Part shown: positions 18,901 through 36,062 of the stretch, piece after piece
Position numbering within the stretch: position 1 is the first letter of the stretch
Layout of the letters: every line of letters starts with the position of its first letter
From: Phyllosticta citribraziliensis
Taxonomy: Eukaryota
DNA: 64,000 bases
Assembly (NCBI RefSeq): GCF_038025025.1
Contig: NW_027117345.1
Location: 62,001-126,000, forward strand
Direction of reading: 5' to 3'
Notes under the pieces: model-generated
Told to the model about the DNA's origin: nothing
Databases searched by the model: none
Seen by the model: the letters and a program-made list of their open reading frames with translations, nothing else
Position numbers and translations under genes: made by a program

Positions 18901-19337
18901 GTAGCTCGTCTGCTTGGTCGACACGCGTAAAAAGTACCTTTTATCACAGCGGGAAGAGTCGGAGCTACCTGACAAGCCTCGACTCCCATGCCTTGATTTG
19001 ATTGAGCCTGCATGTTTCATTCTTCATTCGTCCATTCCCAACATGGCCTTTCTGCTAAATAAGCCCCAACGCCTGCCGCGCTGTGTGCTGACTTGGAGCC
19101 TCACATGCCCGCACCTGCCGCCGGCAGATACGCTTAGACCGCACCTACCTGTCCTATCGTACTTACATGTACACCACCTGCACCGGCTGGCGCTGACCTG
19201 ATTGACCAACGTAGCCCGACCAAATCCTCCTGACCGAAGCGAAGGGATCCACTTCGCCTGCGTACATATATCCCTGGCACGCCAGGCCAATATATCCAAC
19301 AGTCTTTGCCCCGTCCATCCTTACCACCACATCGACC

Positions 19338-20509
19338 ATGTCCTCCGCCGGTTCCTCAGCCTTGGAGGCTGCGAAGCGCCAGTCGACCGCCGCTCTCAAC
19401 AGCGCCAAAGAGTCGCTCAACGAAGGATCCCAAGCCGTTAAGACCGCCGCCGAGAACCCGAGCAGGGCCACGACCGACTTTCTGCACACTCCCTGGGTGC
19501 GAGCCTCCCTCCCCTTTGTCAATGGCGGCCTCGCGGGCATGACTGCCACGACCGTCATCCAACCCGTCGACATGATCAAAGTCCGCCTCCAACTGGCCGG
19601 CGAAGGCATCAAGGAGGGCCCGCGACCAACGCCCTTGTCCATCACAAGAGACATCCTCAAGCAGGGCAAGATTGGAGATTTATACACCGGCCTGTCCGCC
19701 GGCCTCTTGCGACAAGCCGTATACACGACCGCTCGCCTCGGATTCTTCGACACTTTCATGCAAAAGCTGACCAGGCGCGCCGACGCCAGCGGAAAAAAGG
19801 TTGGCTTTGCAGAACGCGCCGGCGCCGGCCTCACAGCAGGTGGCCTGGCGGCCGTGGTAGGAAACCCGGCCGACCTGGCGCTGATCCGCATGCAATCGGA
19901 CGGGCTCAAGCCAGTGGCCGAGCGGGCCAACTACAAATCGGTGGTGGACGCGCTGGCACGCATATCCAAAAACGAAGGCATAACGGCGCTGTGGGCGGGC
20001 TGCAATCCGACGGTGGTGCGGGCCATGGCGCTCAACTTTGGGCAGCTGGCCTTCTTCTCCGAGGCCAAGAATCAGCTCAAGGGCTCGTCGCTGAGCGCGC
20101 GCAACCAGACGCTGACGGCGTCGGCCATCGCCGGCTTCTTTGCGTCGTTTTTCAGCTTGCCCTTTGACTTTGTCAAGACGCGGTTGCAGAAGCAGACCAA
20201 GCGCCCCGACGGGACCTTGCCTTATCGCGGCATGTGGGATTGCTTCAAGAAGGTGACCAAGGAAGAGGGCATCCTGCGCTTCTACCGCGGCTTTGGCACG
20301 TACTACGTTCGCATCGCGCCGCACGCGTAAGTCCTCCCTCTCCGTTGTGGATTTTTGAGCGGGCTGCCACGTCTGTGGCGTTGAGCCCTGGCGAGGTGGT
20401 TTCGTTGGGCCATGAGGTTGGCTGATGATGGACGATTGATGACTGACCGTGGCACAACAGAATGGTGACCCTAATCGTCGCCGACTTTCTCGGCTTCGTC
20501 ACAAAGTAG
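19338..20509 (+). CDS. Mitochondrial carrier, 2-oxoglutarate/malate (dicarboxylate-tricarboxylate) type (345 aa; exons 19338-20326 and 20461-20509)
   Basis: Three Px(D/E)xx(K/R)xR signatures (PVDMIKVR, PADLALIR, PFDFVKTR), GLSAGLLRQAVYTTARLG and RIAPH. A 134-nt GTAAGT...CTGAC...CAG intron restores the last helix. Confidence 0.93.
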
Positions 20510-22515
20510 AGAGACGCTCCTCGTACGACGGTCGAACCAACGCGCGCGCGATGTCGGAGGCATTTTTTCCTGTTGAATTCCTACCCCTTGTCAAATACAG
20601 TACACACCCATGACAAAGTACACACTCAACCGTCCGCTCGGAATCTCGTTCGACTGCTAGTGCTTTTTCGTTGCCGTTGCTACTGCTGTGCGTTCTGTTG
20701 TGTTGTGTGGGATGAAGATGCGGCGGCGGCGGCGGCGGCGTCAACGTTTTTCTGTTCCGGGTTCGGTCTTGTTGAATCGCGTTGTTGGAATGAGGTGAGG
20801 TGAGCCGGACATCGGACGCCCTGTCGCGCGACGGAGGCTGCCGTGGCGTTGGGAGGCGGTGCTGTGTCCACAACCAAACCAAACCAACACCACCACTACC
20901 ACAACAACAACAAGATGCGAAAACGCCATCGTCCATCGCCTCCCGATCGGAAGGACGCCCGTTGTTGGCCCAGCTGCGCGGTCTGTCTGACTGGCTGGCG
21001 CTCGGGCGCCGTCGCATCGGACTGCGAGGGGCCGCCGCCGCTGTGCGTTGCTGCGCTGCGATGCGCTGCGCTGTGCTGCAGTGGGCCGAGGAACTGTTGA
21101 TGAAATAACGTCACGACGGTCGGTGCTGCTACTGTTGGGACTTTTCTGTCGTTTGTCTTTCCTCGTTCGCTTTTTCTTATCTTTTCCTGTCGTGTTTCCG
21201 CTCTTTTCCTGTTTCTTTTTCTTTCCTTCGTCATTCGTTGGAGTTTTGCCGTCTTTTGCACCGGTCCAGAGCGAGAGAGGATGAGAGGGCGCGCGCACAT
21301 ATGTGCTGCTGGCTGTTTGTTGGGTAGGTGGATGGGTTGCGTTAGATCACGGTCTTGCTGGCTGATTGATTGGCTGTTGGGCCTCCTATGCTGGGCAGGC
21401 AGGCGCGCTGGTAGTGCATGAATTGATCTCGTCATTGAATAAAGGCAGTCAGTCCTTTCTGCGCTTTCACTCTGCACCTGGAAGGCGTTGGCGTTCTCGG
21501 AGCTGTTCCATTGCTCTGAAGAAGAGGAGGCGCAGCGATGTATGTGGATGAAACTTCGCTGTGATGGTATAGTGGCTGCTGCTGCTGCTGCTGCTACTGC
21601 TCAAAGCCGTCTTTACGCCGAGCGTCGTTTCGACTCATAGCTTGATTGGTACGCCGTTGCCTTGAAGAGAGATTCGCCAGGTGCCTCACAGTCGGTCTCG
21701 CAGCTCGCCAACTTGCCTGTTTGCAGCTGTCTTCGTATCCGTCGTCTTGTCTGCCTTTTTGCTTGAGATATAATACTGAGTCTGCACTTAGTGTCGATGC
21801 ACCGTGCACCAGACGATGAGGCTTTCAGAGAGCAGAGGTTTGACTGCTGGTCCTGGATACGGCAGAGCGAGAGAATAGGCTTATTCATCGACAGTCGTAC
21901 TCTGACTGGTCGTCCTTGAAGAGGATCAGCACAGGCCGAGCAAGCAATCCAATTCTTGCGGAGGCGGGGAACAGGTTTGTCCATCCAAATCGTTCTTGCT
22001 GGCGATGCTTCATCGGAGTGTTTCCTGGTGTTGCTATTCCTCGTTCTTCTGCCTTGAAAATGGTCAAGTCGTAGAGCTTGAACCTCATCAGGTCCACGCA
22101 GATGAAGAGACCATATCCACATGGATGTGAGTGATGAGATGCCTGTGATGCCATCTCTTGGTGGGTGGACCGGGCCGGGAACTGGTGTCCGCACAGATCG
22201 CCAGACGGCACGGGTACCCTTCCTCGGCCCGTCGGGACCGACTCCGCCCGTCAATGGCCGGGGAGTTCCCGCGCCGACGATGAAACGACGTCAAGAAAAA
22301 CACCAACGTCCATCTTTGCCGCTCTCCCCGGCCGATTCCACCATCTGCGCCGGCACACTTTCTCAAAACCATGCGCTCGAGCTGTTCGACGCGTCGCCTC
22401 ACCAATTGACGCTTACAAACTCAAATCCTGTCTTCATGTCCAACATTTCCACGCCGTGACGCCCAGCGCGTCCTCAACCGCACTCGCGACCGAGTCCATC
22501 GACGGATGAACCAAG

Positions 22516-25500
22516 ATGCGAACCGTTTCGCGGAGGCAGAAAGGGAAGGTCTTGCCGGCCTTCCATCGCTACCAGCTCCCGAGGCAGCTGACGCGCACAG
22601 CGGCACTCAACCACATATCAGCGCGCATCATTCCTCAATTGCTGCCGCATCTCTATGACTTGACCCCCGACCGGTTTCCAACGCGGCGAAAGGCGTACGA
22701 CGCGATAAAACAGCGACTGTTGATCCCATTCCAGAACCAGCTGTTCTTGGGGAGATATATGGGGTGGGATCATGAACAACGTCCCTCAAACGGTGTTCGA
22801 TCCCGGCTCTGGCACGACCTTACTCCGCATATACTAGATGATACGTTGTCGTGTTGTGAGGTCCTCAAGGCACTATCCGATGGTGCAAGAACGATGTCGT
22901 TTCTGCACGACGGGAACGACTTGGTTCGCGCAGACGTACGTACGTGGCGACATTTTCACAATCTCGAAGATGCGCTTTGCGCTCTAGGCTTTCAATCCAA
23001 CACCATCGTTCCCTATGTGTCTTGGCGGATCATAGGGGTGTTGGACGGAAGCTGGAGTGCCGAGCGCGTGATTTCTTCGACATGGCGTGAGCGGAGCGTC
23101 GCAGACGATGCGTGCGAGGAGCACGACGCGTTCGTAGATGCTGACTTGGACGCCGGGCGCATTGATGACAAGGATAATTCAATGGTTTTCCACACCTTGA
23201 TGAGTGAGCCATTTTTGCGCAATGACAAGATGGTTTCGCAGTGGATGAAATCGCTGGGATGGCAGGTTAAACTTGAATCAAAGACTCATCTAATCGAGCG
23301 AGTGCTTGTTCCCTCAGCATTGGCCAAGGGGTACCAGGGTGTGGAGGAAAACCTAGATGCAGAGGTACCGTCGACCAGTCAACCTCGCAACTCTTCAGGA
23401 ACAACACATGCCGACAGGAAAGAGTCTCCTCAGCCTTCTGGCTGGAATAGCCCCCGCAACGCCAAGAGTTCTGATCAAGCAGCATTTTCGAACCAATCTG
23501 CAGTCGCTCCCACAGCCATTACAGATTCCAAGCCTATCGTTAGGTCGGCTTGGGAAGAATCTCCTACCACATCCTCTACCACCGAAGAAAGCAAGGTCCG
23601 ACGGACGTCATGGGATGATCCCGAGCCATCCGCCCCAACAGACGTGTTTTCCACATCGTCTCTGACCGACACGGAAAATGGCCTGCTTGGTTCGAGTTCG
23701 AATTCGTCTACGGGCGGGAGTCTCTCAGACAGCGATGCTTGGGAGTTGCTAAACACCAAAAAAGCTTCTGCGCCGGGCCAGGATAGCGAGACTCCCGTTG
23801 CATCCGAGAAAGTGCAGCTGCGCGCCACAAGAGATGCGTTAGTCGTAAACTCGCCGCGGATGCGGCAACGAATGGCACGCCGGAGAGAACGCGAAGCTGG
23901 AAGAGCCACGAGAATGGATCATGATCTAAATGTCCTGCAACAGCTGCAGTCTCGTGGCTCCGGCCTGCCTGTCTCTAAAGCACCATGGCTCCATGCGGCC
24001 GGGAGAGAAAAGGTCTCTCATAACGACGCTCGAGACGGTGTCGGGGGTCAGCAGAGCAACGCTTCCCCTGGCAACGAGCAGCTGGCGAGGCTGGTGAGGA
24101 GCAGGCAAGGGGGCACCTACCGCGACGAAGGAGGCAGCTGGGATAAGCAGCAAAGTCAGATCCCTCCTGGGCAGCCAGACCGTCAGACTTTTCCATTCCT
24201 TGCTTGGTTGGGGACCTCTGCAGCCGCCTTCATGCATTTCCCCCTTATACAGCACCTGAAGCAGCAGCAACAACAAAAACGAAAAAGCGGGTCCGGCCAG
24301 CTGGAAAACACGACGCTGCGGGTGACGGAGGCGGATCAGAAATGGACCTTTTGTAACGAAGAAGGCCGTTCAGTACTCACGCGCCCTATCCCCCGCAAAG
24401 ATCAGTTTCAGGAGCTCAGGGAGTGGTGGCAACGGCATGATAAAGCGGATGGTCGTGACATCGACCCAGCACACATCTACTTACGCTATCTAGAGCACCA
24501 CTACTTGGATCCGGAGCAGCATCAGGTGAGCATTGTGCCCCTGATGGAACACCTGGTGCAAGATCAACAGCGGCCTGGTGAACTGGCCCACACGACACTG
24601 TCTCTAAAAGTGAAAAAGATAGACTGTACGTACTTCTTCCATGACGAGGAAGGCCGTCAACTATACAAGCGCAGTCAACCCAATGCAGGAGAGCACCAGA
24701 AGCTGAAGCAGTGGTGGCAGCAGCAGCAGCAATCACGACAGGAGCATGGGAAAAGCGCATATCAGGAACGTGGCGAAAAAGTCACCGACGCGCAGATGTG
24801 GTTGATGCTTCTCAAACAGCACCTCCTGCAACAGCAGGAAGAACAGCGGACTCAATCACGACAGCCCAGCGAGTCGTCGGCAGCTCAGGAAGAGGTGGCT
24901 GTTGACCCACCGTCGCCATCGATTCAGCAGCCTGTCAAGCAGTCAGAGCAGCCGCAGGCGGTCCCTCTGAGGCTACAGCGTCTTGTTAATTATATTCTGC
25001 AGTATCAACAGGAGCGGCGGCGGCCAGGCGATTCAAAAAACAAGTTGCCGCCGGAGTTGATCATCAAGGGGACGAGAAGAAAATGGATATACTGCGGCGA
25101 AAATGGCGTCATCTTACTCAAAAGAAATATGCCAAATAGCAGCAAGAAGGCAGCATTGCGGCTTTGGTGGCAGCAGCGGCAAAAGCAACAGGGACAGCCC
25201 TTTGATGAATGCGAAGCACCTCCACATAAACGAATATGGGTCGAAAAGGTGGAGCAGAAATATGTGCAGATGCTGTCGTCGTCTGCCAAGGGAGAGGCGG
25301 CTGATTTCTCGTCTACGCCATCGTCATCTCCGCCGTTGGGTCGGTCAGAGAAAGAAGAAGTTTCTACCACTCGGCATCAGGACCGCATCAGCGAATCCCA
25401 GGATCTTACCAGTGAACAGCTCAGGGCAATGATGAAGAGGAAGGGATACAATCGTGCTCCAGGACCCCGGGTCAAGTGGATTTATTGGAACAAGCATGGA

Positions 25501-25675
25501 GACTTTCTGTTGAGACGTGGAAAAGTTAGGAGCGATATGCTGCAAGGTGACTGGAAGTTCAGGCGGCTTCAGCCACATGAGCAGTCACGCCTTCGACAGT
25601 GGACCACAGAATCGTCAAATGCCATTGAAGGGGACAAGGCGGAATCAGGAAACAGAATCGCCCGAATCCCACCAC

Positions 25676-25711
<36 letters not shown>

Positions 25712-26178
25712 AGCAGCAGCAGCAAGAGGAACAAGGAGTGGAAAACGGCGCACAGCCGTTGGGGGGGAGAAGACGCAGGTGTGTTGTACGAGACGAAGAA
25801 GGCCGTGTCATAGCTGTGCGGACTGCAGGAATTGGCAGAATGGGACTAAATTCCCGGCGAAAGTTGTTGGAGTTTTGGGATTGGTATCAGCAGGAACAGC
25901 AAGATGGTTTACAGCAGCCCATTGAACCCGGGTCGCCAAATTTTTGGCAACGGATTTGGGAGCTCAGGGCAAAGGCGCAGCAGCACAAGTGGGAGCAAGG
26001 AAGAAACACACCACAGTTCGCTACATCATCGTCGGCCAAGGAAGAAGGGGCGGAAAACACGATGGTGCCACAAATCCCGTCGCCCCCGCCGGCAGAGCAG
26101 CGACAGGAATCGAAGGAGCAGGAGAGCAGCTCGCTCATGAGCCGCCTGGACAAGATATCTCAGGGCAAAACAAAGTGA
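22516..26178 (+). CDS. Large hypothetical protein (1220 aa): N-terminal globular region, Ser/Thr-rich linker, then five degenerate repeat modules separated by Gln-rich linkers
   Basis: 3.66-kb uninterrupted ORF with internal repeats visible in the translation (see findings). No known family recognised; start codon uncertain. Confidence 0.8.
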
Positions 26179-27697: not shown

Positions 27698-27727
27698 CCC
27701 CCCCCCACCCCCCCCCCCCCCCCCCCC
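27698..27727. repeat. Poly-C tract (C9-A-C20) about 150 bp upstream of the HET gene
   Basis: Read directly from the sequence. Confidence 0.9.
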
Positions 27728-27878
27728 TCTCTCTCTCCTTCTTCGTCACTTTTGGTCAAGAGCCTGCTGAATCAAAGTCTTCTGAGTCTTCTTCTCCAAT
27801 GCTCCGGAGCTCAACTCTCATTCCTGAAACAACATTTACGACTGCGGGCTCATAACTGGCCTTGTTCATGATCAAAAA

Positions 27879-30332
27879 ATGACATCCAACATGTCTGGAA
27901 AAAGGCCCCGAAATCGGGCGCTTTGCGGTAAATGCGACAGGTTTCTCCTAAACGTTTCCAGGATCGGGTCGACCGGCGAGCTCTTCTTCCTTGGCTTTTT
28001 TGAGATGATCGAACGACGGAGCAAGACCTGCGTCCTCTGTCTACTTGTTCACAAATTTCTTGCAAAGAGCGGCCCCAGCGTCGCATTCTGGAATCACCAA
28101 ATCGTTCTTAGCCCCAGGTTTGGTGTTGAAGAGTTCGCCATTTTATGCCCAGAAATCTGCCAGAGCGCTCCGCTTGGCTGGGTTCGAATCATCCAGCCAA
28201 ACGAGCGCATTTCCATCAACGGCCAAAGCGACTCCGGGGGAATCGACGAAGCTCTCAAGACAGGCCAAATACAGTTCAAACAAGTCAGATCGTGGCTTGC
28301 GAGCTGCGGTGTTGCTGGGTACCACCTTGCTGCCGATGGAAACAAGCCCTGGGGCATGTTCAGCCCAAGGAAAGTCCACGATCATCCTGAGGCGAAGGAA
28401 ACTCTTGTGGAAAGAAGTCTCGATCCACGGAATATGCTACTGATTGATGTTATCGATGAGTGCCTCGTGAAAGGCCGTCTTGACGTCAATTTTGTAGCTT
28501 TGAGCTATGTCTGGGGATCCTGGGGTGGATTGGAAGTCATAAAGACCACTGCAGAATCACTGAACTCTTTTTGTCAGAAGGGTAGCCTCAGTGGACTCGG
28601 TGAGAAATTGCCACGCGTGTTGAGCGACGCCATGGAGTTTGTGCGCGGAATCGGCCAACGCTACCTCTGGTGCGATTTGCTGTGCGTCGTATCAGACGAC
28701 CCAGAAGTCAGAAACAAACAAATCCAGATGATGGACGCCGTATACAGTGAGGCCACTCTCACCATCATCGCCCTTACTGGATCTCACGGCAACATGGAGC
28801 TTCCTGGTATCAGACCTCGATCCAGAGACCCAATTTGTCTTTCGGAGACTCTCAACGATGGTTCGCGATTGGTCATCCGGTACCTCCAGCTCACGAGTTT
28901 CTACGACAGCACAACCTACACGAAACGAGCATGGACATTTCAAGAAGAACTCTTGTCAAGAAGATGTCTTTACATTACGGACCGGCAAATGTACTTCAAA
29001 TGCAGATTCTGCTCACATCGCGAAGACGACATTCTATTCAACGAGGCCAATGATGAGAATGTGGAATTTCGTCTCAACTCCTTTCCAGCGGGTTACTCAA
29101 GTCTCGCAAACGTTGGTCAAAACATGAGCTTATACGAAAGACTGGTCGGCGAGTATAGTCGGTGACAGCTTACATTCGACAAAGATATCTTGAGGGCTTT
29201 CGAGGGGATCACTTCGGTGCTTGCGAGAGAGTACGATTGTCCGTTTTGGTGTGGACTTCCCAGCAAATTCTTAGTCGATGCACTCTTCTGGATTCCGAAA
29301 GATCACATCAGCCACCGCGTCGATGGAGGACTTATTCCAACTTGGTCTTGGGCTGCTTGGAAGGGCCCTGTATCCCACCAACCTTCCGATCCTGACCAAG
29401 AATCCTTTCCGGTCATCCAAGGCTTTATTTTTGGTAGCCAGTCTAGCGGTGCTGTCAAAGATGACCAGACTTTTTTGTTCATCCAGACGGTTCGGCGCAT
29501 ACTTGCCGGCTTCGCGTGCATTGGATCCATGGATGATTTCGAGTATCGTTTCAAGCGCTCAAGACTGAACGCAGGCGGTTGGTCAACACAGTCACCAACA
29601 GAATATCAAGCAAAGTTGGCGATTGAATTTACACGGGGGGGAGGCCGGGGTTTTCTAAGTTTCTTCTCCAGGATGACGTTAACAGATGAAACACCGCCGG
29701 CACCATGGCCATTCGGGGCCATGTGGTGCCTCAACCCGGACCACATAAGCAACTGGTGGCCATCAAACTGGGCTATACCCACGTGGGAAGAAATCTTTCA
29801 CGTTCTACGCCATTACTTGTCCGGGCTATTGCTCGACGAATCCGTTCGGGTGACGAGACCTTCCAGCAAGCTCCGCTTCAAACTCCTCTTCTCTACGATT
29901 AGGGATCAGTCCTTTGAACAACATAACATCGATGGAGGGCAGCTGGTGGAGCAAAACAAAGGCACTTTGAGCACGGTACTTTCGACTTCAGATGGCGCCT
30001 ATGACTTCGATGCGACAACGCGGAGATTTTCCAAAAGAAACGAGCCATTGGACAAACGTCTCGAATTCTCATCTAGACCTATGACGGCGATTTTCCAGAA
30101 TTCTTATTCTACACCTCGTGGGGTCTTGTTCGACTTTGAGGATGACATCAAAACTCGAATCAAGTCTTCTGACTTTTGCCAATTCGTCCTTCTGTCTAGT
30201 TCTCCTTCAGGAGTCCAGAACATCATGCTCGTCGAGCAGTTTGGAGATGGGTATGAAAGAATAGCGGTCGGTCAGCTCTTTCAGCCTATTCCCGTTGAGA
30301 ATTGCACGAAAAGTTTGATCAGTCTCAGCTAA
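27879..30332 (+). pseudogene. HET-domain (heterokaryon incompatibility-like) gene, 817 codons, with one internal in-frame TGA at 29163-29165 (nonsense allele, readthrough gene or sequencing error)
   Basis: HET motifs LLIDV, FVALSYVWG, LPRVLSDAM, RYLWCDLLCVVSDD, QIQMMDAVYSEATLTIIA and RAWTFQE. ORFs 27879-29165 and 29190-30332 share one frame and read YSR*QLTFDKDILRAFEGI, followed by the usual WCGLP, PTWSWAAW and YERIAVG motifs. Confidence 0.85.
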
Positions 30333-31968: not shown

Positions 31969-33357
31969 TTACAGCTTGTCGTCGTCGTCCTTGGCCAAGA
32001 CGTCGCGAAACCACGCGCCGAGGGCCTCGACCTCGCGGCGCCAGTCTGGCGCGCGATGCGCGCCCGTCCAGTGTCCGACGCCCGGGCGCAGCAGCAGCGC
32101 GCAGCGGTCCAGGGCCTCGTCGCGCGAGCCGCCGCTGTCGTGCTTGACGCTGCGCTGCACCAGGCGCACCAGCTCCTCGGCCTGGTCGCGCAGCGGCGAG
32201 GCCTCGCCGGCGCTGACGCTCATGACGGGCAGGCGGAGGCCGGCGGCCGTCGGCGGGTACGCGCGGTAGGAGCGGCGGCGCGGCTCGACGGTTGCGCGGA
32301 GCCCGTGGTATGGCGAGGCGGTTGATGGTGGGGTTGTTTCTTCGTCCCAGTCCGAGGCGAAGGCGTCGTCGGACTTGGGGGGTGCGGTGAAGGCTAGGCC
32401 CGGGGTGCGCAGGAAGTGGATGGGCGAGGCAAAGGGGTCGAAGTAGCCGTCTTGGTCGTGGAAGAAGGCGGCGCGGGCGCGCGTCACGGCGGCGGCGGGC
32501 AGGGCTGGGTTGTCGCCGTGGGCGTCCCACGATGGACGGCGATGTTGTTTGCGTCGGCGGCGGCCGGGGGCGAGTGAGACGCCGGCGATGTCTTGCAGCT
32601 GTTCGAGGAAGCCGTCGTCGCTTTCGTCATGAGTGCCGTCGACGTCGTCGTCGCAGCGGACCAGGTCTGGTGGCAGGATCCAGTCGACGAGGGGATTGTT
32701 GACGGCGGCGGCGGCGATGTGAGGGCCGTGGTCGTGGCATTCGGTTAGGGCGAGGGTGGTTGCCAGGTTGGCGCCCAGCAGCTCGCCGCAGACGCCGAGG
32801 CGGGCAGAGCTGGACTTGGGGTCGACGAGGTTGTGCAGGACCCAGTCCCAGGCGGTCAGCACGTCGTGGACGGGGGTGGGAAAGCGGTGGGCTTCGGCGA
32901 GGCGGTAGTTGACGCAGACGACGGTTGCGCCTGAGGCGGCGGATAGGGCTGCCACGGTTTGGGCGTCGTGGTCCGGGCGAGCTGGGGCATGGTCGGCGAG
33001 GAGAGGGCCGGCGGGGAGGTAGAGGAGGGTTGGGGACGACGCTGAAGCTGAAGCTGAAGCTGAAGCTGAGGGCGGCGGCAGGATGCTGCAGTGGAGGGCA
33101 GTGCATGCAGTCAGCGAGGCACAAGTTCTTGGAGTTGTTACTGTTACTGACCTCAGGCGAATGGCGCCGTTCGATCGACAGGGCACAGTAACCGAGTGCA
33201 CCCCCCGCACCTGACTCGCGCGCCCAGATACCTGAAGAGATAGCACCCGCCCGGCTCTGGACGCCAGCCCGGGCGCCAAAGGTGGGATGGCCACGGCCAC
33301 GGCCATGACGACGGGCATGCGCTGCAGCAGACGCAAGTGACAGGCGTGCTGGAACAT
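31969..33357 (-). CDS. Alpha/beta-hydrolase fold protein (HSL/abhydrolase_3-like), probably non-catalytic (about 440 aa; probable intron 33151-33086)
   Basis: VVCVNYRLAEAHRFPTPVHDVLTAWDWV is HSL-family-like; DPFASP motif; the nucleophile elbow reads GELLG. Probable 66-nt GTCAGT...CTGAC...CAG intron. Start at ATG 33357 is inferred. Confidence 0.8.
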   Translation of the reverse strand: MFQHACHLRLLQRMPVVMAVAVAIPPLAPGLASRAGRVLSLQVSGRASQVRGVHSVTVPCRSNGAIRLRSVTVTTPRTCASLTACTALHCSILPPPSASASASASASSPTLLYLPAGPLLADHAPARPDHDAQTVAALSAASGATVVCVNYRLAEAHRFPTPVHDVLTAWDWVLHNLVDPKSSSARLGVCGELLGANLATTLALTECHDHGPHIAAAAVNNPLVDWILPPDLVRCDDDVDGTHDESDDGFLEQLQDIAGVSLAPGRRRRKQHRRPSWDAHGDNPALPAAAVTRARAAFFHDQDGYFDPFASPIHFLRTPGLAFTAPPKSDDAFASDWDEETTPPSTASPYHGLRATVEPRRRSYRAYPPTAAGLRLPVMSVSAGEASPLRDQAEELVRLVQRSVKHDSGGSRDEALDRCALLLRPGVGHWTGAHRAPDWRREVEALGAWFRDVLAKDDDDKL

Positions 33358-34109
33358 TGGAAGAGTGGCCGGTAGAAAGTCACGGCGCGAGGGATAAGAG
33401 AGTAGGCCGGGCTGGTGCCATGGCATGCCAAAATTGCTGCGGCGCCGTGTTCCCCACACAGATGCAGACACAGACACACGGACGTACAGGGGCCGACTGC
33501 TGGGCGGCTTCCTCCTTCTTGCTCGCTCCCACATTCACTACCCTATCCTCTCTTCCACTCTCTCTCTCTCTCTGCCAACTCCTCCTCCTCCTCCTCCACT
33601 CCGCCCGACCTCTCTCGCTCCCACATCTCCCGCGAACCCCTCGTCCTCTTGGCCCCGCGCTTGTTCCCGCCTCTGCCGTTGGCCGTTTCATTTAATCCCT
33701 AACAGGCAACGTCGGGACGGCCTGGGTCTCAGATTGCCTTGCGCTACCCTACCTGGTACCTACCTACGCTACGGCTTCCCTCCGTCACTCCTTTGACCCT
33801 CAACTACCGGCCACACCTCCAACATATTCCTCTCGTGAGTCCTGCTCGCCGACAGACACGCCTCCAATTGTCCTAATTTTCCTACAAGGGCCGCCTGCTG
33901 CCTGCACCGGCAGTCCACTCCGCCCCCAGCCGCCTAACCCCATTTCTTGCCGTCGCCGGCGCGCCTCGAGCCCGACAACACCACGCCCACGGCCTCCCAT
34001 CATCAGCACCATATTGCACCTCTGCCCCTGAGCCGTCAACCCGAACTGTCTGCCACCGACACTCTCAATCCTTCCGCACCAGGAGCTCACGCGCTCCAGC
34101 ATCGCCATC

Positions 34110-36062
34110 ATGGCCGAGGGAAGTCGGTTACGGGGCTTCTGCATCCTCTTGCGCAACCTCTTCCTCGCCGCCCTGCTCTACACGTGCATTCTCAGCATAA
34201 TCAACCTCGCGCGGAACCCCTCGTCGAGACCCACTGGGAAACTCGGAATACCCGCCTTCCTGGGCAAGTCGGGCCCCGTCGATGTCATCAAGCCCACCAA
34301 GTCGGGCGTCAAGGTCAAGTTTGCAGGCTCGCCGACCAGCGTGACAATCAACCCGCACGCCAACGTCTTCAACCGCCCCGACAGCGCCGTCGCCGCCAAA
34401 GACGATTATCTTGGCCCGAGGCCGCATGTGGACACGGAGGCCGATCTGAAACTCTTGGTCGAGGAGTGCAGGGGCTCATACACGGGGATTGAAAAGATGA
34501 GAAACGTTTTCGACTGTCTCGCGTTTTTCGCCAACGACGAGCACCGCTACTACAAGCTCCCGGAACCGACGGCACGTGCCAGTGCCCAGGACCCTCGCAA
34601 GGCCGAGTACAACGACGCCGACGGCCATGGAAACGTCCTGGACAGATATCTGCCCGTGTCGAACGCGACAAAGGCCTCCAAGAGCTCGATTGGATCTTGC
34701 CCGGGCCCCATCGTTCCCTATCACGTCTATTGGACTGGTCCAGCGACGTGGAGGGTCGAGGTCTTTATCAAGAGTTACCTTTACTCGCAAAATCTGGCTT
34801 GCTCGCGCCTCTTTTTGTGGCTGGATGCCGACAAGAGGCCCAACGCGGTCGACGACATGCTGCAGAGGGACCCCTTGTTTGCCCGCTTCCTCCCCCTGGT
34901 CGAGCGTGGAGATATCACCGTCAAGGCCTGGAAGTTTCCTCAGCGCATCCCGCTGCCCAAAAACGTCGACCACAACGATGGAGCTCGCGTTTCGAGGGGC
35001 CGGCCAAACTCCCAAGGAGAAGTCACGATTGCGGATGGCGTGATTGAGGACAAGAATGGCCAGCAATGGCTCTCTCTGACCCCCAAGCAAATGACCTTTT
35101 TGCCCGTTGCCGTTTCGGACGCCATGCGTTTCGTCATTCTGCACATGTACGGAGGCGCCTACTTTGACATGGACGTCTTGATGCTCCGCGACATGCGCCC
35201 GCTCCTCCTGCCGCAGAACCACTCCTTTGCCGAGCGCTGGGCTGCCCACCCCCACCCTGGCGACTACAACACGGCCGTCATGTCCCTGACTGCCAACACC
35301 TCCCTTTCGTCCTATCTGCTGCGCGGCGGTGTCCGCATGGGCCTCAACTTTCACCCGCGCGTCATTGGCCGAATGGCGTGGAAAGACGGTCGCGATCAGG
35401 AATTCCTGATGCTCGAGACGGCCGCTTTTGACCCCATCTGGACCGAGTTCAACTGGGACCGCGAGGGCCGCTGCACAGTGCCCTGTCTCAAGGACTACAG
35501 CGCTGCATTCAAGGGCAAGACCAACTCGATAAAAGACGAGTGGCAAAGCTACGACGGGCCCCAGCTCGACCATGTGGATCTCAGCCAGCAGCGGCCGAGG
35601 ACGAGGATCCAGTCGCAGAAGGTGGTCAAGGGACGTGGCCCGAGCGCTGAGCCTTCAAGGCCAGGGTCGGACGCGCCCCACTCGGCTGCTGAACAGCCTG
35701 GAGCGGACCATAGCGACTCGTTCACCGCTACTAGCGCCGAGGAGGCCGAGCTCAGGAAGAAGGGCGTCGTTGCCGACTATCGTCTGGAGGAGGATCAGTT
35801 TCCTCCCAACAACCGGACCCTTGAAAACTTTTTCCGCGGTGCTTGGACATATCACATTCACAACCAGGTAAGTTTTTCCGTGACCCAAATATTGCTTAGC
35901 TAACCGGTACAGTGGCTCAAACACCCCGAGCCATCTTCTTGGATCAACGTGATTGAAGTGGCGCACGACGCCTTCTTCGCCGGCACCCGGACAAATCCAT
36001 ACGGCGAGACTTGGGACGGCCCGGACCTAATGCCCTATAATTTTTGGCCGGAGTTTGTATGA
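34110..36062 (+). CDS. Type II membrane DXD-motif glycosyltransferase, GT32/Och1-like (about 635 aa; exons 34110-35867 and 35913-36062)
   Basis: N-terminal TM helix; SDAMRFVILHMYGGAYFDMDV signature; HVYWTG; HIHNQW formed across a GTAAGT...GCTAAC...CAG intron. Confidence 0.85.

Follow-up and report, generated by a model that had tools for sequence, protein, structure and literature searches.

The window analysed here, a stretch of 64,000 nucleotides (nt) from contig NW_027117345.1 of Phyllosticta citribraziliensis (NCBI RefSeq assembly GCF_038025025.1, positions 62,001 to 126,000 of the forward strand), contains a HET-domain gene whose reading frame is broken by a single TGA at codon 429. The stop is real and derived, and a sister organism carries a sense codon in its place. 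We consider the gene to be an ordinary recent CGA-to-TGA nonsense allele, or pseudogene, of the fast-turnover HET family, with a probability of about 0.85, and from the stop we infer termination at codon 429, loss of function and neutrality. The parts of the gene referred to below, with lengths in codons or amino acids (aa), are the following.

27879..30332, forward strand: the whole HET-domain gene, a single exon of 817 codons plus the terminal TAA, broken by one TGA
27879..29165, forward strand: the open frame of the N-terminal part, 428 codons followed by TGA, the expected product under normal termination
28491..28946, forward strand: the match to Pfam HET (PF06985), residues 205-356, E 1.3e-25, 90.9 bits
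29154..29207, forward strand: the conserved block Y426..G443 enclosing the stop, from an alignment of 60 homologues
29163..29165, forward strand: the premature TGA, codon 429, derived from CGA (Arg) according to the contig comparison and the homologue alignment
29166..30332, forward strand: the downstream part, still open, 388 codons plus TAA
29529..30332, forward strand: an ATG-started sub-frame of 267 codons, the sole piece of the gene called as a protein in the public collection

The initial annotation described an 817-codon frame with the TGA at 29163 as its only lesion, followed by roughly 390 codons free of any further stop or frameshift, and translation together with a frame scan bears out both statements. 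The stop at 29163-29165 lies in the context CGG TGA CAG CTT ACA, which reads ..YSR*QLT... Within the 388 codons that follow there are 0 in-frame stops, whereas the two alternative frames contain 12 and 18, and a stop-free downstream frame was obtained in 0 of 10000 mononucleotide shuffles; the open frame behind the TGA is far beyond chance. Homologues of 760-882 aa are collinear with the read-through protein over 83-97% of its length, without a gap at the stop, which argues that the gene is single-exon and that the C-terminal half is part of the same protein.

These homologues come from a search of the protein collection with the read-through protein as query (X at the stop; 8000 candidates scored; E <= 0.001), in which all 103 matches carry HET. 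The best three full-length matches, named Phyllosticta citricarpa and P. capitalensis, are 43-47% identical, and no full-length protein closer than 47% identity occurs among the 103 matches from the 8000 scored candidates. The Pfam match covers profile positions 1-146 of 146, and its score of 90.9 bits stands against a cut-off of 22.5, so that the gathering threshold is exceeded over the entire model. In addition, the gene carries the conserved block beyond the Pfam model (Y..R.LT...D.L.AF.G). Among the 60 homologues, Y426 is kept in 57, L431 in 51, D436 in 60, A440 in 59, F441 in 55 and G443 in 56, and the column of codon 429 holds Arg in 53, Lys in 5 and Leu in 2. The window gene retains every position of this block except codon 429, where the TGA deprives it of the uninterrupted reading frame of a functional member. 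The HET motif YS.R.LT..D.L.AF.G, with the stop at its Arg position, had thus been read correctly, R429 being present in 53 of the 60 homologues. The accompanying description of the stop as lying just after the HET domain holds for the 146-position Pfam model, but not for the functional domain, to which the block Y426..G443 belongs. Reviews give the death-inducing HET domain a size of ~220-240 aa (PMC12881547), and in het-B BH the HET domain is described as residues 1-240, followed by a HET-associated beta-rich domain (PMC10890737). Counted from residue 205, a functional domain of 220-240 aa would end at ~425-445, and the stop therefore cuts the last conserved block.

The stop was compared with public sequencing data, for which 12 runs were found and four (X1-X4) were used. 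X1 and X2 carry the same organism label (organism A) and stem from studies of 2017 and 2025, X3 is a surface metagenome, and X4 represents organism B. X1 and X2 each provide one contig over 27748-30600, with 0 differences from the window and T at 29163; both contigs (depths ~293 and ~1878, respectively) behave like genome contigs. X3 (depth ~4) shows no differences on the listed pieces, and both of its contigs over the site show T. The orthologue-like contigs of X4 (depth 62) differ at 72 of 2390 bases (3.0%), without gaps, and have C at 29163, giving CGA (Arg); the T-to-C difference changes the stop to R. Because X4 has CGA and 53 of the 60 homologues have Arg, the TGA in the window lineage is a derived, lineage-specific C-to-T transition at a CpG. 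The origin of the TGA from CGA, proposed in the initial annotation, is confirmed by the C in the sister organism: the TGA is private to the window lineage, and the relative has the sense codon, which largely corresponds to the outcome named there as pointing to an ordinary loss-of-function allele. A recent nonsense allele, there ranked as at least as likely as readthrough, is favoured by the data.

Repeat-induced point mutation was considered as the cause and rejected: the dinucleotide indices of the gene (TpA/ApT 0.46; (CpA+TpG)/(ApC+GpT) 1.25) are like those of the rest of the window, and the differences from X4 show no excess of C>T or G>A (86 vs 80 in reverse). Close orthologue DNA was also sought in metagenome contigs, where an exact-pattern scan across the stop, with T or C allowed, gave 0 matches, and a protein-guided scan gave 93 pattern matches, none of which was confirmed by tblastn.

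Two further features of these contigs may be recorded. X4 also holds contigs that are only ~87-93% identical on the 5' part of the gene, 27748-28814 (128 differences in 993 nt; 22 and 18 in 259), and that could represent a paralogue or a strongly divergent allele, as at polymorphic HET loci. A long poly-C / CT tract at 27700-27747 lies ~130 nt 5' of the HET start codon. The X1 and X2 contigs both start at 27748, directly past it, so the tract is an assembly breakpoint; it could also be a low-complexity element of the promoter region.

The same locus was followed in shorter relatives, with 19 matches at E <= 1e-10 among 4513 candidates, the closer ones being fragments only. The closest named relative is P0107 (named P. 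citrichinensis; 186 aa, 85% identity), which begins at the equivalent of M253 and aligns to 28635-29193 of the window. After ..LNSFPAGYSS it runs on as ..TKDWSASTVGDSLHSTKIF, a tail that fits the +1 frame of the window gene, TKDWSASIVGDSLHSTKIS*; the +1-frame letters shared after ..GYSS are TKDWSAS.VGDSLHSTKI. This implies that the P. citrichinensis-named orthologue is truncated and independently frame-shifted at a different place, and an independent lesion of this kind in a related species suggests that the locus may, in this clade, be decaying or subject to relaxed selection. P0106 (named P. capitalensis; a 320-aa 'partial' model, 68-69% identity) reads YSRRQLTFD across the site. The closest named relatives are Phyllosticta, Dothideomycetes. 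A third match, P0105, is the window's own 267-aa sub-frame (29529..30332) at 100% identity, called as a protein, and the 428-aa HET-bearing frame was not found as a called protein among the 19 shorter matches. The present annotation of the locus is probably misleading, and the value of the finding lies mainly in annotation, namely that the locus be marked as a disrupted HET gene.

The proposed course of events begins with a single C-to-T transition at a CpG that turned the CGA codon of the near-invariant Arg429 into TGA. Ribosomes would be expected to stop at codon 429, with loss of the full-length protein, and nonsense-mediated decay would probably act on the transcript, in which ~1.2 kb of once-coding sequence follows the stop. 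The remaining frame would be open only owing to the youth of the mutation, and the gene would be a recent loss-of-function allele or an incipient pseudogene.

In filamentous ascomycetes, few gene families are described as being so numerous or so variable as the HET genes (PMC10890737, PMC13412767). Among Sordariales, HET is reported to vary in copy number more than any other Pfam domain (PMC10890737), and its presence/absence variation is marked among 76 N. crassa strains (PMC13412767). In a family so numerous and variable, a single disabled copy is expected, not surprising. Only a small minority of HET genes are described as het loci (PMC10890737). The window gene is like the ordinary loss-of-function and presence/absence polymorphism reported for HET genes (PMC13412767, PMC10890737) in having one recent disabling mutation and a related species' copy disrupted elsewhere, and no notable difference separates them. 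The gene thus adds a further disabled copy to a large, fast-turnover family.

The intact downstream frame is not an argument for function. Once the observed transition bias is taken into account, 3.9% of random changes within these 388 codons create a stop. At a lineage divergence of 1.5%, which assumes that the TGA arose directly after the split from organism B, 0.68 new stops are expected, and a copy free of them has a probability of 0.51, which falls to 0.26 at 3%. About half of neutral copies would thus still be stop-free at this divergence, and the open downstream frame therefore carries little weight. As a general point, an otherwise intact frame with a lesion younger than ~1-2% divergence does not show function.

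Several points weigh against the gene being a simple nonsense allele. X1, X2 and X3 are identical to the window and may represent one clone, so that fixation of the allele in a species is not demonstrated by them; X1 or X2 may, moreover, be the assembly's own source. The T calls of X3 (depth ~4) sit close to contig ends, at distances of 4 and 9 letters. That the P. citrichinensis-named copy is broken is deduced from a gene model, not from DNA. The 428-aa product keeps the entire Pfam HET match and a weakly TIR-like core, which makes the loss of all activity a presumption, and termination at UGA with C as the next base is weak, such that some leak is likely for any stop of this kind.

The substitution pattern on the two sides of the stop counts in part for the nonsense allele and in part among these points, and it is drawn from partial data: 40 of the 237 differences from X4 are listed, 36 of them inside the gene. 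For the X4 contig that crosses the stop (record 17, 28984-29779), 30 of its 33 differences are among them. Upstream of the stop, record 17 has at least 3 nonsynonymous and at least 8 synonymous changes, corresponding to a ratio of nonsynonymous to synonymous rates (dN/dS) of ~0.08 (p 0.0002 vs neutral). Downstream (to 29635), it has at least 11 nonsynonymous changes in 10 codons and at least 7 synonymous ones, and dN/dS on these partial data is ~0.43 (p 0.09 vs neutral), which is indistinguishable from neutral. The comparison of dN/dS on either side of the stop, suggested in the initial annotation, thus points to weaker constraint downstream (~0.08 vs ~0.43), but the difference in nonsynonymous-to-synonymous counts is not significant (Fisher p 0.13), and the downstream region is less conserved across the HET family anyway. 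The pattern is compatible with relaxed downstream constraint and is no proof of it.

We note that synonymous divergence (pS) between organisms A and B is uneven in record 17 (28984-29640), at ~0.23 before the stop (59 codons) and ~0.07 after it (158 codons); this could be noise from a small sample, mark a boundary of recombination or introgression, or stem from old polymorphism near the HET core.

The alternative that survives best, improbable as it is, accepts the TGA as a true terminator and holds that the 428-aa product is functional, for instance as a HET protein that lacks regulation or interferes dominantly, with only the C-terminal half decaying. It would retain the full Pfam HET match (205-356) and the region at ~200-411 that weakly resembles TIR/deoxyribosyltransferase folds (Z <= 5.7). 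The upstream dN/dS of ~0.08 (partial data) is in its favour, as is the report that the HET domain alone suffices for cell death when overexpressed (PMC12881547). However, the truncated product lacks D436, which is invariant, as well as A440, F441 and G443, which are nearly so; all four lie in helix 434-452 and fall within the ~220-240-aa functional domain (PMC12881547). The low upstream dN/dS between organisms A and B mostly predates the mutation, and a constitutively active death domain would be counter-selected. In addition, the predicted model folds as one compact unit (predicted template modelling score, pTM, 0.81), and half the protein may be unstable.

The gene is of a type that sets off regulated cell death in filamentous fungi. 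Its product begins with a cysteine-containing N-terminal region, followed by the TIR-like HET core, a beta-rich middle that is conserved, and a C-terminal domain that is likewise beta-rich. In the AlphaFold2 model (61-sequence alignment; mean predicted local distance difference test score, pLDDT, 80.8), the stop lies between helices 416-427 and 434-452, and the weakly TIR-like fold core precedes it. Foldseek found no match with E <= 0.001 in the PDB. A wide fold search with VIA gave weak matches only (Z <= 5.7, where the noise level of the tool is ~8), all below the level at which the tool is informative; these matches reach residues ~200-411 only, which leaves the C-terminal domain effectively outside the fold test. 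The best is the nucleoside 2-deoxyribosyltransferase 6evs_B, at Z 5.7 (root-mean-square deviation, rmsd, 3.5; 104 aligned; below the noise level). Among TIR proteins, SARM1 (9hq0_A) matches at Z 4.8 (rmsd 3.9; 96 aligned), and TRR-2, SpbK, MyD88 and ThsB match at Z 3.4-4.7, again below the noise level. A distant HET-TIR relationship has been proposed (PMC10890737, PMC12881547), with which the weak TIR matches of the model agree.

Functional leaky termination was raised in the initial annotation as a possible translational switch or dampener, and the evidence is against it. At UGA-C, a few ribosomes would insert Arg, Trp or Cys, and traces of the toxic protein would be made; that the new stop is tolerated or favoured since a small readthrough fraction keeps a potentially self-harmful HET protein at trace level seems to us very unlikely. 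The immediate context offers some encouragement. The UGA has C at +1, and direct reading confirms that the 3' hexamer CAGCTT fits CARYYA at 5 of 6 positions, a fit of at least 5 matches being expected for 13/512 hexamers at equal base frequencies. The 388 downstream codons are open, and their dN/dS of ~0.43 (partial count) is nominally below 1. Against this, the fungal readthrough motif is given as UGA CU(A)(G), with efficiency in U. maydis set mainly by the first two bases, CU (PMC4207609), whereas the window has UGA CAG, in which the first base C fits and the second is A. No X4 difference falls at 29164-29203 among those listed; the 3' context therefore seems to be ancestral Gln-Leu-Thr coding sequence, older than the stop and not selected after it.

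The stop is derived and is absent from the sister organism (CGA), so it is not conserved among relatives, and the downstream dN/dS of ~0.43 does not establish constraint; an open frame is, besides, expected by chance at this age. The 120 nt at 29163-29282 show no stimulatory RNA structure (z -0.34; an equal or better fold is reached by 76 of 200 shuffles). TGA terminates 12 of the 19 open frames of at least 300 codons in the window, and no suppressor tRNA is at hand, the 64-kb window containing no tRNA gene. The selenocysteine machinery is stated to be lacking in fungi (PMC4207609), and the ancestral residue at codon 429 is Arg, not Cys or selenocysteine. Nothing beyond the +1 C supports readthrough.

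Programmed readthrough is known to extend proteins at their natural ends and is not known to bridge a new stop at an invariant residue. The readthrough at UGA CU(A) by which fungi and animals produce peroxisomal isoforms (PMC4207609) is similar in being fungal UGA with C as the next base. It is different in that the second base in the window is A, not U, and in that the window stop is internal, new, replaces an invariant Arg and is not conserved in the sister organism, whereas the stops of peroxisomal isoforms are described as natural protein ends with a short conserved extension (PMC4207609). Were the readthrough idea true, this would be a first case in which nonsense plus leak sets the dosage of a fungal gene for immunity or allorecognition, and meaningful translation past the stop would bear on how fungi restrain toxic cell-death genes.

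Repair of the transcript before translation, which would leave the genomic TGA silent, is less credible still, whether by adenosine-to-inosine (A-to-I) editing of the stop or by splicing of a short segment. Restorative editing of premature stops in otherwise intact fungal 'pseudogenes' does exist (PMC10776026), and the window gene is like those of Fusarium and Neurospora in being intact apart from one premature stop. Unlike them, it has TGA at an Arg codon and relatives in Dothideomycetes, whereas the known restorative editing acts on TAG (TAG to TGG, in Sordariomycetes), by a machinery that goes back to the Sordariomycetes ancestor and arose separately in Pezizomycetes (PMC10776026). With Phyllosticta as its nearest named relatives, the gene has neither the TAG stop nor a place in the Sordariomycete-editing lineage. 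Furthermore, editing of UGA would give UGG, that is, Trp at an Arg column. As for splicing, 42 in-frame GT..AG spans of 40-250 nt extend across the stop, among them one of 57 nt (29112-29168). An intron across the stop was rejected: even the best donors agree with GTAAGT at no more than 4 of 6 positions, a CTRAY branch point lies in range for 0 of the 15 best spans, and each of these deletes conserved residues (e.g., Y426). The suggestion that splicing might remove the stop accordingly finds no plausible intron among the 42 spans.

A sequencing or assembly error with C as the true base, which the initial annotation had entertained as a base-call error, is the least probable of all, has no observation in its favour and is refuted by the T at 29163 in contigs of two organism-A studies (depths 293 and 1878) and of a third, environmental data set, with the caveat that one of the studies may be the source of the assembly and that contigs drop rare variants.

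Returning to the disrupted HET gene itself, its closest described counterparts are non-NLR HET proteins such as Podospora anserina BH (het-B; PMC10890737), with which it shares the single-exon structure. BH is described as a HET domain, a HET-associated beta-rich domain and a variable C-terminal recognition domain (PMC10890737). Likewise, the HET domain of the window protein is followed by a conserved beta-rich segment (the WSWAAW region) and then by a C-terminal domain that is beta-rich and more variable. Its HET part bears a weak resemblance to TIR folds, in keeping with the proposal for the family. Unlike BH, the window protein has ~200 extra N-terminal residues bearing conserved Cys pairs, Foldseek gives no match with E <= 0.001 that would make its C-terminal domain a lectin fold, and the gene has no evident adjoining partner gene and is broken by the stop.

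Twelve adjoining open frames were scanned against Pfam, three of which have a match. These, and the upstream neighbour, are as follows.

19215-20330, forward strand: mitochondrial carrier (Pfam)
22510-26178, forward strand: open frame of 1222 codons without a Pfam family, the upstream neighbour, 1.7 kb from the HET gene
31969-33534, reverse strand: alpha/beta hydrolase (Pfam)
34032-35903, forward strand: DXD glycosyltransferase (Pfam)

No NLR, PII-like or other obvious partner gene lies beside the HET gene among these 12 neighbours in the Pfam scan. The sequence of the 22510-26178 frame is present in the ESM Atlas, where it has no look-alike. Its product is Q/S/P-rich and contains about five copies of a ~35-aa module, W..C.EEGR..L.R...(P)......L..WWQQ.

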